A DNA stretch of 64,000 nt from Clostridia bacterium (lineage in GTDB: Bacteria > Bacillota > Clostridia > Oscillospirales > CAG-272). Both the position numbers and the translations under genes were made by a program. Positions 3,206-35,290 of the stretch are shown piece by piece. How positions within the stretch are numbered: position 1 is the stretch's first letter; every line of letters begins with the position of its first letter. The stretch covers positions 9,456 to 73,455 of the forward strand of contig JAFTNU010000036.1 of NCBI GenBank assembly GCA_017451735.1, in the 5' to 3' direction. The notes beneath the pieces were generated by a model that saw only the letters and a program-made list of their open reading frames with translations, ran no database searches and was not told the DNA's origin.

Positions 3206-3234
3206 TTGACTTTCCGGCGGCAAGGTGCTATAAT
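3206..3234 (+). promoter_or_regulatory. sigma-A type promoter with extended -10
   Basis: TTGACT (3206-3211), 17 nt, TGcTATAAT (3226-3234). Confidence 0.7.
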
Positions 3235-3296
3235 GTAGGAGATTTTAATATGCGTATATACTCATAATATGGTTGAGCGTTTCTACCAACCGCCGT

Positions 3297-3338
3297 AAAT
3301 GGTTGACTACTGCATTACAGTCGACCATTTTTTCTTTT
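3297..3338 (+). terminator. intrinsic terminator inside the leader of the 3350 gene (attenuator)
   Basis: AAATGGTTGAC (3297-3307) pairs with GTCGACCATTT (3320-3330): 11 bp including one G-U, with a 12-nt loop. It is followed by TTTTCTTTT. Confidence 0.7.
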
Positions 3339-3349
3339 GGAGGTAAGGT

Positions 3350-4717
3350 ATGAACTTCGACGTTATCATCATCGGCGCGGGCCCAGGCGGTATCTTTTCC
3401 GCATACGAATTGGTACAGCGCAGACCCGACCTGAAGGTGGCTGTTTTTGAGGCGGGTCACGCACTGCATAAGCGCAAATGCCCGATCGACGGTGACAAAA
3501 TCAAAACCTGCATCGGCTGCAAAAGCTGCTCGATCATGAACGGATTTGGCGGTGCGGGCGCCTTTTCGGACGGCAAATATAACATCACCAACGATTTTGG
3601 CGGCACGCTATACGAATACATTGGCAAAAAGCAGGCGCTTGATCTGATGCGTTATGTCGATGAGATCAATCTCAAATACGGCGGCGAGGGCACAAAGCTC
3701 TATTCCACAAACGGTACACGCTTTAAGACACTTTGTATTCAGAACGACCTGCATTTGCTGGATGCATCGGTTCGCCATCTGGGAACGGATATCAATTACA
3801 TCGTTCTTGAAAATCTTTACGTATATTTGCAGGATAAGGTGACATTTTTCTTTGATACGCCCGTATTGAGCGTAAAGGCGGTAGAGGACGGCTACGAAAT
3901 TCTTTGCGAGGGCAACGCCTATCAAAGCAAGCACTGCATCATTTCCGTCGGACGCAGCGGCAGCAAATGGATGGAATCGGTATGCCGCGAGCTGGACATT
4001 CACACCAAATCCAACCGTGTTGACATCGGGGTGCGCGTGGAGCTGCCCGCAAATGTTTTTGCCCACCTGACTGACGAGCTGTATGAGAGCAAAATCGTAT
4101 ACCGTACAGAAAAATACGGGGACAAGGTACGCACCTTCTGTATGAACCCCAAGGGTGCCGTTGTCAACGAAAATACAAACGGGATCATTACGGTCAACGG
4201 ACACAGCTACGAGGATCCTGCCAAGCAAACCGAAAATACAAACTTTGCCCTGCTTGTGGCGCAGCACTTCTCCGAGCCCTTCAAGGATTCCAACGGCTAC
4301 GGCGAATCCATCGCAAGGCTTTCCAATATGCTTGGCGGCGGCGTGATCGTGCAACGCTTCGGCGATCTGATCCGCGGGCGGCGATCTACGACCGCCCGCA
4401 TCAACGAGGCCTTTATCACGCCCACATTGAACGCCACCCCCGGTGACCTTAGCCTGGTGCTGCCCAAGCGCATTCTGGACGGCATTATTGAAATGATCTA
4501 TGCATTGGATAAGGTTGCTCCCGGCACTGCAAACGAGGACACGCTCCTGTACGGCGTAGAGGTCAAATTCTACAACATGGAGGTTGAGGTGGACGAAAAT
4601 CTCGAATCCAAGCACAAAAATCTTTATATCATCGGCGATGGCAGCGGCATTACGCATTCCCTTTCTCACGCCTCTGCAAGCGGTGTCCACGTGGCGCGCA
4701 ATATTGCCGCAAGATAA
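3350..4717 (+). CDS. FAD-dependent oxidoreductase, COG2509-type (uncharacterised NAD(FAD)-utilising dehydrogenase)
   Basis: N-terminal dinucleotide fold DVIIIGAGPGGIF, GGAGAFSDGK, C-terminal IGDGSG. SD GGAGG lies upstream of the ATG. It is a paralogue of the 25314-26918 gene. Confidence 0.8.
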   Translation: MNFDVIIIGAGPGGIFSAYELVQRRPDLKVAVFEAGHALHKRKCPIDGDKIKTCIGCKSCSIMNGFGGAGAFSDGKYNITNDFGGTLYEYIGKKQALDLMRYVDEINLKYGGEGTKLYSTNGTRFKTLCIQNDLHLLDASVRHLGTDINYIVLENLYVYLQDKVTFFFDTPVLSVKAVEDGYEILCEGNAYQSKHCIISVGRSGSKWMESVCRELDIHTKSNRVDIGVRVELPANVFAHLTDELYESKIVYRTEKYGDKVRTFCMNPKGAVVNENTNGIITVNGHSYEDPAKQTENTNFALLVAQHFSEPFKDSNGYGESIARLSNMLGGGVIVQRFGDLIRGRRSTTARINEAFITPTLNATPGDLSLVLPKRILDGIIEMIYALDKVAPGTANEDTLLYGVEVKFYNMEVEVDENLESKHKNLYIIGDGSGITHSLSHASASGVHVARNIAAR

Positions 4718-22585: not shown

Positions 22586-24781
22586 TCACCCCTTTCGGCA
22601 CTGACTTTTCAGCTTTTTCAGGATCGCGGATTTTTCGATATTGGTGCGGGAGGCATTGAAATAGATATCAAAGCGATAGGAGTCGTTTCCCAGCTCCTCT
22701 ACCCCGCAGATCTTCAGCTCATGAAAGACCTCCAGGATGTATTTCAAGCACACATAATTGATGGAGCGGGGGGCACCCGCATTGGAAAGGGACAGGATAT
22801 CCCGCACGGTGAAAACATCTCTGCCCGCACGGAACTCGCGGCGCAGGGCGGTATAGACCCTTGCAAAATCGGAGCGATCGGGCACAAACTCCTCCTCGGG
22901 ATCAAAGGGGGCGCCGCCTCGCACCGCACGGTAGCGATCGGCAAGGCGGTCGTATTCCCTGGCATAATCGGCAGACGGCTTGAAATCCTGAACGATGAGC
23001 TGCACGCTTTTGACATCGCGGAATTCGTTCACATCCACGGTGCAAAGCAGATCCACCCGATCCCCTTCATGAAAATCAAAGCGGGAACGGGGAGTGGAAA
23101 ACAGAAGCGCAAAGACAGACGCATCCCCATCGGAAACCAGAAGCTTGAGATGCTTACCGCCCCCCAGCTCGGTGATGCGATCCACGCGCAGGTCACGCAA
23201 AATGAACTGCGGGGTGGGATTGGAGACCCCGAAGGGCTCCAGACGCTCCAGCTCCTCGGCCAAGGCCAGGCTCACCTGAGATAATGTCATTTCAAGATCG
23301 GCCTCCAGGTGCACCGAAAGCCCTTCTGCCGGCAGATGCTCGGCGGCATAGGCATTGATGCGGGTGCGGAAGTCATCCAATCGACCGCGGGTCACGGTCA
23401 GCCCCGCCGCCAGCTCGTGTCCGCCGAATTTGACCAGCAGATCCTCGCAGGAGCGCAGGGCTTCGAATAAATTCATACCCTTGATGGAGCGGCCCGAGCC
23501 CTTGCCCTGATCATCCGGGCTATGGAAGCCGTCGGCGGCCCCGTCAAAGGAAATCAGGATCGAGGGCAGGCCGTAGCGCTCGGTCAGGCGCGAGGCCACG
23601 ATGCCGATGATTCCCTGCCGCCAGTCATCGTCCTCCAGGACCAGCACATGGGTATTTTCCAGGTCGAACTCCTCGTCGATGCGACGATAGGCCTGCTCGG
23701 CAATGCGGTTTTCCTCCACCTGGCGCTGACGGTTGATCTCACACAGCTCTGCGGCCAGGGCGCTTGCCCGCTGGGGGGTATCGGCCAGGAGCAGCTCCAC
23801 AGCGTGAGAGGCCTCGCTCATGCGGCCCGCCGCATTGATGCGGGGCGCCAGACCGAAGCCGATGAAGGAGGAGGTGATCTTTTTCTTTTTGGCGGGTCGG
23901 GTATCCCCCGCAGTGCGGTTCCCCGCCGACGCTTCTTCAATAAGCGCCGCAAGCCCCACGCGCTTGGTGTCGGCAATGCAACGCAGGCCCAAGGTCACGA
24001 TCAGGCGGTTCTCGTCGGTAATGGGCATGACATCGGCAATGGTGCCGATGGCCACCAGGTCGGCATATTCCCGCGCCATACGGCGCACGCCGTCGATCTC
24101 CTTCTCGCCCCGCTCCATGCCCAGCGTACATTCGTAAGCGGTCATGACCTTGAAGATCACGCCCACGCCCGCCAGCTCCTTGAAGGGATAGGGACAATCG
24201 GGACGGTGGGGGTTGACCACCGCCACGGCATCGGGCAGGGTCTCGCGGCACTCATGATGATCGGTAATGACCATATCGATGCCCTTGTCACGGGCATAGG
24301 CCACCTCTTCATTGGCGGTGATGCCCGTATCCACGGTGACGATACAGGTTACGCCGCTCTCGGCCAGGCGGTCGATGGCGGCCACGGAAAGGCAGTACCC
24401 CTACTGTCTGCGACTGGGAATGTAATAGCCCACATCGGCGCCGAGATTTGACACATACAGATAGAGCAGGCTCACCGCAGTGACGCCGTCCACATCGTAA
24501 TCTCCGTAGATCACGATCTTTTCACGGGTCTCCACCGCGCGACGGATCCGCGCCACGGCGGGCTCCACATCCCGCAGAAGAAAGGGGCTGTGAAACATGG
24601 TATCCTCACAGCGCAGGAAGCGCTCGACCGCCTCCCTTGTGCGATATCCGCGACAGTAAAGCAGGCGCGCGCAGATGGAGGAGAGCCCCGTTTCGTTTGC
24701 CAGCGCGGTGATCTCACCCTGCGTCGGCGCCGAGGCCTCCTCGCGCAATACCCATATTTTTTCACGTTTGATCTGTTCCAT
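22586..24781 (-). pseudogene. recJ: single-stranded-DNA-specific exonuclease RecJ, interrupted by one in-frame TAG (24403-24401)
   Basis: ORFs 24401-24886 and 22586-24385 are in the same frame. The joined product reads ...IYGDYDVDGVTAVSLL...YYIPSRRQ*GYCLSVAAIDRL...IVTVDTGI...VITDHHE. The stop sits where RecJ homologues have the acidic residue of RF(E/D)(E/D)GYG. Confidence 0.85.
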
Positions 24782-34383: not shown

Positions 34384-34460
34384 GGGGGCATAGCTCAGCT
34401 GGTTAGAGCGCATGCTTGACATGCATGAGGTCATTGGTTCGATCCCAACTGTCCCCACCA
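34384..34460 (+). tRNA. tRNA-Val (anticodon GAC), CCA encoded
   Basis: Cloverleaf read by hand: acceptor GGGGGCA/TGTCCCC, D-arm AGCTCAGCTGGTTAGAGC, anticodon stem CATGC/GCATG with loop TTGACAT, T-arm GGTTCGATCC, and 3' ACCA. Confidence 0.9.
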
Positions 34461-34461
34461 A

Positions 34462-34505
34462 CAAAAAGAGAACTTTTGTTTACCAAAAGTTCTCTTTTTG
34501 TTTAT
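34462..34505 (+). terminator. rho-independent terminator after tRNA-Val
   Basis: 17-bp stem CAAAAAGAGAACTTTTG / CAAAAGTTCTCTTTTTG, loop TTTAC, T-rich tail. Confidence 0.85.
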
Positions 34506-34685
34506 CCAAGCCGCAGGCTTGGCATATCATCCGCCGCAAGGCGGTATATCATCAGCCCTTCGGGCTGTATCTCATCACGCCCCGGCGTGTATTTTTCTGC
34601 GGCTTGATGAGATACAACACTTCGTGTTGATGATATCCAGCTCCAAGGGAGCTGATGATATACAAGGCTTCGCCTTGATTTATTT
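34496..34685 (+). repeat. hairpin-comb element, copy 1 (190 nt, full length)
   Basis: Seven GC-rich hairpins are separated by AT-rich ATATCATC-type spacers, three direct and three inverted. See findings. Confidence 0.85.
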
Positions 34686-34760
34686 ACAAAAACTCTAAAA
34701 GAAGTGATATTGTGGAACCATTGATGCACCTGTTTGGCTGTATTCTAAACCGGTTTGATT

Positions 34761-34903
34761 TTTTGTTTATCCAAGCCGCGGGCTTGGCATATCATCCGCC
34801 GCAAGGCGGTATATCATCAGCCCTTCGGGCTGTATCTCATCACGCGTCGGCGTGTATTTTTTCTGCGGCTTGATGATATACAAGGCTTCGCCTTGATTTA
34901 TTT
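34761..34903 (+). repeat. hairpin-comb element, copy 2 (143 nt, copy 1 minus 48 nt)
   Basis: Aligns to copy 1 with 3 substitutions, 1 T-run length change and one 48-nt deletion bounded by a TGATGA direct repeat. Confidence 0.85.
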
Positions 34904-34942
34904 GCTAAAGTATGATATGATACTCTCAAAGGGAGTGATAGT

Positions 34943-35290
34943 ATGGCTAAAAACTATTTATTGGTCTATTCGGAGCAGCTTGCAACCGATATGGAATTGC
35001 TTTGTCAAAATATAAAAGCTCCTTCCAATACTCTTTTTCAAATCCGTAAAAGCTCAAGCAGTGTTTATGCAAACATTCGTGAAGCCAATTATGGACAAAG
35101 CAAAGCGGATATGCTTTCGAAATTTGAGATTGCCCTTAAAGAATGCACTGAAACAGAAGGTTGGTTGCAGTTGTTGTACAATGCAAACGGCGTAGACGAG
35201 AACATTTACAAAAATCATAGAAATCTTTGCGGGCGCATCAGACGAATGCTGATTGCAAGCTGTACAACGCTAAAGAAGAACACAAAATGA
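34943..35290 (+). CDS. four-helix-bundle protein (23S rRNA intervening-sequence protein / Avd family)
   Basis: QIRKSSSSVYANIREANYGQSKADMLSKFEIALKECTETEGWLQLL fits the family pattern Q..RS..SI.ANI.EG....S..DF...L.IA..E..ET..WL. SD AAGGGAG is present. The gene is markedly AT-rich relative to its neighbours. Confidence 0.75.
   Translation: MAKNYLLVYSEQLATDMELLCQNIKAPSNTLFQIRKSSSSVYANIREANYGQSKADMLSKFEIALKECTETEGWLQLLYNANGVDENIYKNHRNLCGRIRRMLIASCTTLKKNTK

Follow-up and report, generated by a model that had tools for sequence, protein, structure and literature searches.

Polar hairpin arrays at stable-RNA gene ends of gut Clostridia: a possible DNA-level platform of a linked four-helix-bundle protein

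The element described here is a repeated array of short hairpins located directly behind the tRNA-Val(GAC) gene in a stretch of 64,000 nt from a Clostridia bacterium (contig JAFTNU010000036.1; the whole stretch is referred to below as the window). The second of its two copies is followed by a gene for a small four-helix-bundle protein of the PF05635/TIGR02436 family. The element, named here the tRNA-3' comb, belongs to a large family of modular elements with dyad symmetry, which are anchored to the ends of stable-RNA genes. This family is linked to clade-matched four-helix-bundle genes and is recombinationally active. It is quite possible, if somewhat short of probable, that the comb serves as a DNA-level recognition platform of the cognate four-helix-bundle protein and in this way controls the promoter of the cassette and/or its duplication and exchange.

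Architecture of the comb

The comb is built of two arrays of polar modules in inverted orientation. A module is formed by a tag of 8-11 nt, 5'-(G)YATATCATC(A), and a short GC hairpin with a loop of the G..A type that follows it. The loops read on the (G)YATATCATC strand are GAA, GCA, GTA, GGA, GAAA, GCAA, GACA, GTCA and GTTA. In the orientation of the window the parts are arranged as follows: stable-RNA gene with its CCA end; A-run, hairpin and T-run; ATCC with hairpin A; about three proximal modules, among them the conserved hairpin ACGCnnnnGCGTG; an A/T-rich linker; the centre segment a'; about three modules of tag and hairpin; hairpin B; and GATT.

The G..A loops lie on the top strand in hairpin A (49/55) and in the proximal arm (59/122), and are read on the other strand in the distal arm (71/90) and in hairpin B (32/53), which makes about 211 loops against a single one of the opposite polarity. 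The opposite polarity is essentially absent, from which it follows that each module is polar and that the arms form true inverted repeats. A single transcript of the comb would combine one arm with G..A loops and another with U..C loops. When closed by a C-G pair, GNA and GNNA loops are known as classic, very stable mini-hairpins of single-stranded DNA. The spacing from tag to tag is 19-31 nt (modes 23, 25, 22, 26 and 19) and is without helical phasing, which favours looped-out hairpins and disfavours cooperative binding on straight duplex DNA. Probably, the hairpins are folded out.

An earlier note, made from the window alone, had described two copies of the element, with seven hairpins and six AT-rich units in copy 1 and a deletion of 48 nt between TGATGA repeats in copy 2. 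Alignment reproduces both copies and the deletion, as well as the remaining differences between them (loop substitutions 34515 A/G and 34581-82 CC/GT and one change in the length of a T-run), and all hairpins and units lie where they had been placed. The element is also genuinely non-coding, structured and repeated, as had been claimed. Folding of both its strands beats that of dinucleotide shuffles (z = -7.3 for the plus and -8.7 for the minus strand, 0/200 shuffles being as good), and TATCATC is found 18 times in the window with 6.6 expected, 7 of these inside the element.

Two features had been overlooked. The 5' arm and loop of hairpin A (34507-16) are complementary at 10/10 positions to the centre of the comb (34597-606), and the repeated stretch is wider than the comb itself: copy 1 is followed at 34697-34715 by a copy of the ribosome-binding site and start of the downstream gene. 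This segment is a relic of the lost four-helix-bundle gene of a first cassette. Rather than a tandem duplication, the window has two cassettes in tandem that have decayed to different states, of which the first has lost its gene and the second two distal modules, the latter putatively via recombination between tags.

Conservation of pairing

Pairing was evaluated in a MAFFT alignment of the window copy with 20 canonical relatives (alignment A2), with covariation scored against 500 shuffles. The four hairpins are 87.4% paired (75.6% after shuffling), 13/24 of their pairs are changed on both sides, and their covariation score is reached by 0/500 shuffles; the hairpins are under selection. The best-conserved long-range feature is the 10-bp pairing of hairpin A with the centre. 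This helix is 98.6% paired as compared to 73.8% after shuffling and 24-47% in controls with slid positions, 6/10 of its pairs are changed on both sides, and again 0/500 shuffles reach its score. Exact complementarity of at least 10 nt between hairpin A and the centre occurs in 46/56 unique elements and in at least 8 sequence variants, the orientation of the elements having been assigned independently of this pairing.

A different fold had been proposed in the earlier note, namely a rod of stacked junctions on a self-complementary spine of AT-rich units. The spacer complementarities of 11 bp and 13 bp do exist, but the 13-bp pair (34544-56 with 34651-63) does not join nested partners in a comb of 3+3 tags. 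In alignment A2 the spine is 94.9% paired against 95.1% after shuffling, only 3/30 pairs are changed on both sides, and 340/500 shuffles reach the covariation score. At the variable position of the tag the spine has A:T 96 times, C:G once, A/G 14 times and C/T 29 times, so that varied pairs are compensated in 1/44, the single C:G case being the window itself. Long unidirectional arrays of tags and hairpins without the opposite arm also exist (L098, L100, L090, L102 and L093, among others; L with a number denotes an individual locus). As covariation is absent and unidirectional arrays exist, the rod is rejected, and the spine complementarity is a by-product of two inverted arrays of one tag and not a selected helix.

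Stem pairs in 63 relatives are ~98% Watson-Crick: 14 G:T and 5 A:C pairs were counted beside 2241 Watson-Crick ones, and wobble pairs make ~0.6%. The wobble asymmetry was considered as a test for the transcribed strand and found uninformative, the adjacent terminators being equally clean.

Relatives and genomic address

Relatives were sought in one genome per species with the pattern GATGAKAT repeated three times with gaps of 10-24 nt, for which ~8 chance matches were estimated. The scan gave at least 120 matches, nearly all of them in metagenome-assembled genomes (MAGs) of gut or rumen Clostridia; more than 100 are counted as relatives. Among the matches listed, the hosts are Acutalibacteraceae, Oscillospiraceae, Eubacteriales, Christensenellaceae and Ruminococcus; the units nearly always come as two to four ATATCATC and then two to five GATGATAT ('---+++'); tandem pairs of elements are seen at several loci; and at least 4 MAGs have two separate loci each. 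One MAG (CADCOW01) holds a different repeat with a shared 8-mer (L034 1538-1970, L081 9-91), which is built of GATGATATCCGCCCCTACAG-like direct units of ~25 nt and has no hairpins.

The address of the comb is strict. Among the matches listed, a tRNA called by ARAGORN lies within 400 nt on the hairpin-A side in 39/63 oriented elements; all 39 tRNAs read toward the comb and together represent 22 different anticodons. The usual junction is CCA, AAAAA, hairpin, TTTTTTT, ATCC. At most loci where no tRNA was called, the matching place is occupied by a 3' fragment of a tRNA, and combs are also situated behind tmRNA (L127) and at the ends of 5S-tRNA operons (L116, L010, L258). The unit extends from the position right after the CCA of the stable-RNA gene to the -35 box of the four-helix-bundle promoter. 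The terminator is counted within it since homologous terminators precede combs behind other tRNAs: the type found in the window recurs before combs behind Tyr, Val and other tRNAs.

Orthologous tRNA clusters keep the terminal comb across MAGs (Gly-Arg-His-Gln, Val-Asp-Phe-Gly(-Cys), Thr-Tyr and Met-Glu). At one such site the variants of terminator and comb differ between MAGs, and one variant is found behind different tRNAs, which points to turnover or exchange. Locus L012 is syntenic with the window and contains 4.1 kb between tRNA-Val and ksgA with two combs, one of them preceded by a decayed 3' fragment of tRNA-Val. Within the own species of the window, a presence/absence check returned a single other assembly with an identical neighbouring protein, and the spacing there is the same 814 nt.

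An origin from phages or plasmids, including an attP arm, was considered and rejected: blastn against phage and plasmid collections gave zero matches, and among 119 viral pattern matches none had the dyad and none was a comb.

The four-helix-bundle gene and the tag types

The gene located 39 nt past copy 2 had been assigned in the earlier note to the family of intervening-sequence (IVS) proteins and Avd. Its product indeed scores 63.6 bits with PF05635 (cut-off 33.8) and 69.8 with TIGR02436 (cut-off 24), matches PDB 2RLD with E = 1e-13, and is linked to the comb. At 15 scanned loci a homologue is present, and in 15/15 it lies 60-100 nt past hairpin B and reads away from it. The gene in relatives is usually preceded by TTGATT-17-TATAAT with the -35 box overlapping hairpin B. 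In the reverse test, which started from homologues of the protein (3364 clusters) and retrieved their contigs, the order of RNA gene, terminator, comb, promoter and gene was found in every retrieved context; the RNA genes were tRNA-Gly gcc, tRNA-Gly ccc, tRNA-Ser tga and tmRNA with two tandem units. One comparison of four-helix-bundle genes gave 47 synonymous versus 15 non-synonymous codon differences, and the gene is under purifying selection.

In relatives the four-helix-bundle gene is often followed by a variable second gene of 123-152 aa with membrane or lipoprotein character, which overlaps its stop codon. Since this second gene occupies the place where the window has an open reading frame (ORF) of only 22 codons, this ORF is probably its remnant. 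The second-gene products have no Pfam match. PADLOC gave no match for the four-helix-bundle protein or for two second-gene products, and a defence system was rejected on this ground.

Three tag types go with three protein clades. The tag GATGATAT of the window and its relatives belongs with clade 1. The tag TATGTAATC/GATTACAT belongs with clade 2, which is 56% identical to clade 1 and is represented by L010, by L252-256 behind tRNA-Arg and by L257-259 behind 5S-tRNA-Asn; elements of this type have the same architecture as that of the window. The tag GTGAAAT, characteristic of the Rfam family Gut-1 (see below), belongs with clade 3 (L290, L360, L368), which is 40-47% identical to clade 1.

A conserved promoter with leader, TATAATCAnnTCGAyAAAyAAGAATTTG, was seen before the gene that follows the comb or the cassette in L036, L091, L080, L066 and L099, and the same motif in L111 both at the first element and past the four-helix-bundle gene. 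It may be a separate cis-regulatory element. Many homologues of the window protein are annotated with 153 or 161 aa and lie on contigs shorter than 1.5 kb; it seems that the reading frame is prolonged upstream into the comb by gene callers and that assemblies are prone to interruption at this place.

Recombination and turnover

The clearest recent event is seen in L121 (tRNA-Gly gcc) and L123 (tRNA-Gly ccc), whose gene contexts are unrelated. Mismatches between the two loci are absent over the stretch that begins with the first distal hairpin and includes the gene (348/348 identical positions in the gene), and near-identity reaches the first third of the second gene; the proximal arm, the terminator and the tRNA differ. 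The pair records a recent exchange with its left breakpoint at the centre of the comb. The terminators before the two combs (L121 2242-2284, L123 1263-1305) have a stem of the same type with loops that are reverse complements of each other (GGTAGAC and GTCTACC), i.e. the palindrome appears to be flipped as a whole.

Other signs of turnover are numerous. L121, L123 and L128 each keep a comb-less terminator immediately past the unit on its right side. Cassettes are arranged in tandem in L127, L035, L111 and L116, and strains with the same flanking genes differ in having one comb or two (L254 versus L252, L253 and L255). Module deletions between tags are common (e.g., L012 and copy 2 of the window), and decayed genes are found in L013, in L024 and after copy 1 of the window. 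In L257 (1-442) and L259 (1-1000) foreign-looking DNA, read as other mobile elements, is inserted exactly between the end of the stable-RNA gene and the A-run of the comb; the insert of L257 carries a large serine recombinase gene, and L258 has an intact tRNA-Asn at that place. An inverton with a and a' as the repeats flanking the proximal arm was also considered; no flipped isomer was found in the arrays inspected, no systematic search having been made.

A segment of ~45 nt to the right of solo combs (L016, L019, L032, L076, L083, L092) recurs and resembles a decayed tRNA T-arm with acceptor end, e.g. GGGGGTTCGAATCCTTATCGCA; an A-run and a T-run follow it. It could be a remnant of an old attachment site.

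Proposed role and alternative explanations

According to the explanation favoured here, the comb would act as DNA and serve as a cis-acting platform for its cognate four-helix-bundle protein. The protein would recognize the tags where they are displayed between folded hairpins, the DNA being single-stranded or extruded. The comb would then control the promoter of the cassette and would be the site at which cassettes undergo recombination and duplication and are maintained at tRNA 3' ends. The proposal draws on the shared niche of the family, on the link between comb and gene with its three tags matched to three clades, and on the signs of recombination. Action as DNA rather than as a single transcript is suggested by the position of the comb between a terminator and a promoter, by the loop polarity inverted between the arms and by the unphased spacing. 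A broader version of this proposal seems rather unlikely as it stands: PF05635 proteins with their cognate combs would form a hitherto unrecognised two-part system that colonises or punctuates the 3' ends of tRNA, tmRNA and rRNA operons of gut Clostridia, in which the protein reads clade-specific tags between folded DNA hairpins and the cassette moves or is copied from one such end to another without a recombinase of its own. If true, it would give the first functional context for a very large orphan protein family, and the Gut-1 'sRNA' would really be a DNA element.

Several observations weigh against the platform proposal. About three quarters of the combs have no adjacent four-helix-bundle gene. 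The co-variation of tag and clade could be plain linkage of adjacent, jointly inherited parts. No recombinase is present in the cassettes examined, and the end of the segment shared by L121 and L123 inside the second gene fits ordinary homologous recombination and not a site-specific mechanism. Clade 2 is sometimes without a clear promoter between comb and gene (L252), and transcription could then extend over part of the comb. G:T pairs are nearly absent, but as this holds for the adjacent terminators too, it does not discriminate DNA from RNA. Finally, we know of no demonstration of sequence-specific DNA binding by proteins of the PF05635 family in the Avd literature.

The first alternative overlaps with the platform proposal and is rather improbable. 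The comb could be a non-autonomous mobile element, similar to repetitive extragenic palindromes (REPs) and bacterial interspersed mosaic elements (BIMEs) or to miniature inverted-repeat transposable elements, or a miniature integrative cassette, and would insert between the CCA of a stable-RNA gene and the terminator of that gene. Tag and hairpin would be recognised by a trans-acting single-strand DNA enzyme (HUH/Y1) or a recombinase, and the four-helix-bundle gene would be cargo or accessory. A mobile element is consistent with the multi-copy state (at least 4 MAGs with two loci among the matches listed), with 22 tRNA anticodons and tmRNA as hosts, and with variants that differ at orthologous clusters while one variant stands behind different tRNAs. 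It also fits the second, comb-less terminator past the right end, the tandem arrays and copy-number differences between strains, the decayed genes and the many homologues on contigs below 1.5 kb, which are expected if repeats break assemblies. The GNA/GNNA loops, as stable mini-hairpins of single-stranded DNA, point the same way. Yet the cassettes examined have no transposase or integrase inside or adjoining them, no target-site duplication was recognised, and the element is absent from the phage and plasmid collections (0/119 viral pattern matches being a comb). The sole clear recent transfer resembles homologous gene conversion, and the palindromes within one element are all different, unlike those of REPs.

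A structured noncoding RNA is unlikely. It would be a distant small RNA of the Gut-1 type or a read-through 3' trailer, with a multi-stem junction closed by a/a' and tags that bind protein or RNA. Rfam classes Gut-1 as an sRNA, Weinberg et al. rate it as a likely RNA with covariation, and both copies in the window match it over its full length below threshold. The hairpins and the closing helix covary strongly, the loops of hairpin A are often GAAA or GCAA, and the palindromic terminator could end a minus-strand transcript. On the other hand, the comb sits past a strong terminator and before the downstream promoter, and a conserved promoter was found on neither side of it. One transcript would mix G..A and U..C loops by arm, and many of the loops (GTCA, GTTA, GNA triloops) do not belong to the standard stable loops of RNA. 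Wobble pairs make only ~0.6% of stem pairs, though the terminators are equally clean, and the order of arms is reversed between the Gut-1 type and the window type.

A two-way transcription insulator or back-up terminator, which would end highly transcribed stable-RNA operons by hairpins and AU-rich tracts met from either side, is very unlikely: the invariant position immediately past a palindromic terminator and its retention by orthologous tRNA clusters in different MAGs, the dyad symmetry and the terminator-like flags on hairpins C and B with their T-rich tracts agree with it, but most hairpins have no following U-tract, and the conserved tag, its three clade-specific versions, the a/a' pairing and the link to the four-helix-bundle gene are left unexplained.

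Features of the window locus

The positions of all parts are given in Table 1. Further neighbours of the four-helix-bundle gene are KsgA, a glycoside hydrolase and a carboxylase operon. Elsewhere in the window, a purine riboswitch aptamer (RF00167, 56.4 bits) lies at 3232-3330 (+) directly upstream of an ORF of 455 aa (3350-4717). A tRNA-Arg(TCG) called by ARAGORN at 23188-23269 (-) is probably a false positive, as it falls inside an ORF of 599 aa (22586-24385, -) and has no Rfam tRNA support.

Table 1. Parts of the tandem comb cassettes behind tRNA-Val in the window (positions are those of the window).
Feature	Position	Strand	Evidence or remark
tRNA-Val(GAC)	34384-34460	+	ARAGORN; Rfam tRNA, 62.8 bits; CCA end is the left anchor of the unit
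Terminator, perfect 19-bp palindrome of A-run/hairpin/T-run	34460-34502	none	Self-complementarity
ATCC and hairpin A (CCAAGCC-GCA-GGCTTGG)	34504-34522		5' arm and loop (a) at 34507-34516
Copy 1, whole	34496-34685		Seven GC hairpins, six AT-rich units
Copy 1, tRNA-proximal arm	34524-34589	+	Polar modules, from loop polarity
Copy 1, proximal tags ATATCATC	34524-31, 34546-53
Copy 1, proximal tag ATCTCATC	34569-76
Copy 1, proximal hairpins	34531-44, 34554-66, 34576-89		The last is hairpin C (hpC)
Centre segment a' (CTGCGGCTTG)	34597-34606		Reverse complement of 5' arm and loop of hairpin A
Copy 1, distal arm	34606-34680	-	Polar modules on the minus strand; ends with GATT after hairpin B
Copy 1, distal tag GATGAGAT	34606-13
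Copy 1, distal tags GATGATAT	34629-36, 34654-61
Copy 1, distal hairpins	34615-29, 34638-54, 34663-77		The last is hairpin B (hpB)
Degenerate ribosome-binding site and start remnant after copy 1	34697-34715	+	79% identical to 34928-34946
Copy 2, whole	34761-34903		Hairpin A at 34769-87, hairpin B at 34881-95
Copy 2, proximal tags	34789-96, 34811-18, 34834-41
Copy 2, centre segment a'	34863-72
Copy 2, lone distal tag	34872-79
Sigma-70-like promoter TTGATT-17-TATGAT of the downstream gene	34893-34921	+	-35 box overlaps the 3' arm of hairpin B
Four-helix-bundle gene, 115 aa	34943-35290	+	PF05635/TIGR02436
ORF of 22 codons	35287-35355	+	Overlaps the four-helix-bundle stop (ATGA)

Comparison with known systems

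No match to a known family had been recognised in the earlier note, and at gathering thresholds Rfam indeed reports no family on the element. In a relaxed cmscan, however, Gut-1 (RF01706) is the only consistent match, and it is found on both copies. True Gut-1 elements share the architecture and the genomic niche of the comb: with their flanks they, too, are dyads past a tRNA and terminator, and some are followed by a four-helix-bundle gene. The scores are 25.0 bits (34519-34599, -) and 22.4 bits (34784-34864, -), below the gathering threshold of 50, so that the element is not a Gut-1 member by this measure. The match spans model positions 1-77 with all three hairpins and their linkers on the tRNA-proximal half. 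Like Gut-1, the window element comes from gut Clostridia and metagenomes, has arrays of short GC hairpins with a repeated AU-rich linker, and has a central segment whose pairing competes with that within the first hairpin. Unlike Gut-1, it has a different tag (the linker is GAUGAUAU in the window and UGAAAU or GUGAUAU in Gut-1, the consensus of which has UGAAAU), and the order of the polar arms relative to the tRNA is reversed.

The Rfam model of Gut-1 is a single arm of 77 nt, classed as an sRNA of unknown function. Weinberg et al. 2010 (PMC2864571) reported Gut-1 as 'detected only in human gut sequences', regarded it as probably an RNA, with covariation, and recorded neither a tRNA nor a gene association for it. 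In the Stockholm flanks of the family at least one member is located directly behind a tRNA and terminator, and beyond the 77 nt of the model there is an inverted array with the complementary linker and further hairpins; the dyad is therefore larger than the Rfam model, which describes one of its arms. In L089 a bona fide Gut-1 (68.8 bits) is situated between a tRNA-Arg terminator and a GATGATAT comb. A metagenome scan for Gut-1-type tags gave nine dyads, of which 7/9 are beside a tRNA or tRNA fragment with terminator and 3/9 are followed by a promoter and a clade 3 four-helix-bundle gene. The Gut-1-type pattern also caught unrelated GTGAAATGACGTGTGCGTC repeats in both orientations in L367 (719-1009), which are not a comb. 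Gut-1 represents one of the two arms of a sister type that shares the tRNA-3' niche. For the element of the window, the position between terminator and promoter and the loop polarity of the dyad argue against a discrete transcribed sRNA.

In E. coli and its relatives REP/BIME elements are extragenic mosaics of palindromic units in alternating orientation with a tag at one end. They are sited where transcription units end (3'), readily recombine and change in copy number, and probably act as DNA or folded single strands, as is proposed for the comb. The comb is similar in being a mosaic of short palindromes in both orientations with a tag per unit, in its 3'-end position and in its recombination. 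In contrast to REPs, which repeat the palindrome itself, the comb has a constant tag with every palindrome different; it targets the ends of stable-RNA genes, and its linked gene encodes a four-helix-bundle protein. No gene of the REP-associated tyrosine transposase type was identified, its presence genome-wide not having been searched. The comb is not a REP/BIME member, as its palindromes differ within and between elements and its tag is GTATATCATC and not GTAG or CGTC.

Other repeat classes were compared and rejected. An integron attC is excluded by the lack of R''/R' core sites (RYYYAAC...GTTRRRY), the several hairpins and the absence of an integrase at the loci examined. A CRISPR array would have repeats of 24-48 nt, whereas the constant part of the comb is 8-11 nt long and its variable parts are perfect palindromes. 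Iterons and centromere-like duplex repeats do not agree with an unphased spacing of 19-31 nt. A DnaA box (TTATCCA at the left edge), a Chi-like site, a Fur/omega-heptad-like operator and a type III antitoxin array were dropped from reading of the sequence alone.

Two known systems share the PF05635 family with the window protein. The first is the IVS of 23S rRNA with an S23p/IVS-protein ORF in Leptospira and Coxiella, of which that of Coxiella is described as a selfish element (PMC4990558). The IVS and the comb cassette are alike in having a PF05635-family gene and hairpin-forming DNA attached to a stable-RNA gene. The IVS lies within helix 45 of 23S rRNA and is excised from the RNA, whereas the comb unit lies past the CCA and terminator and has its own promoter and a comb of several hairpins. 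The second is the diversity-generating retroelement with its protein Avd. The comb locus is not one of these: no reverse transcriptase and no template/variable repeat was found beside the element, the rest of the window not having been scanned, and no reverse transcriptase was found in the relatives' cassettes examined, which contain only the four-helix-bundle gene and a small variable gene.

The building plan of the comb is thus partly known as Gut-1 and analogous to REP/BIME. The searched literature holds no follow-up of Gut-1 and no account of tRNA-linked hairpin arrays or of PF05635 genes beside tRNAs; nor does it describe the full dyad, two further tag types, the strict address at tRNA/tmRNA 3' ends or the three-way match with PF05635 clades. 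The superfamily of tRNA-3' combs is defined here by its address, a stable-RNA CCA with an A-run/hairpin/T-run terminator, and by its design of two inverted module arrays with a centre complementary to the first hairpin; the element of the window has both. Gut-1, an orphan 'sRNA' in Rfam since 2010 known only from gut metagenomes, now becomes one arm of a larger dyad. A likely misclassification of DNA as RNA in a curated database is also flagged. Together with at least two sister types Gut-1 gains a host range (gut and rumen Clostridia, e.g. Acutalibacteraceae and Oscillospiraceae), an exact address after the stable-RNA terminator and a protein partner that tracks the repeat tag, so that an unexplained motif becomes a testable protein-nucleic-acid system. 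The function of the stand-alone PF05635/TIGR02436 proteins, a very numerous group that is uncharacterised except in diversity-generating retroelements, may also be approached in this way. The compact cassette of terminator, comb and promoter occupies tRNA 3' ends, which are also targeted by other mobile elements.

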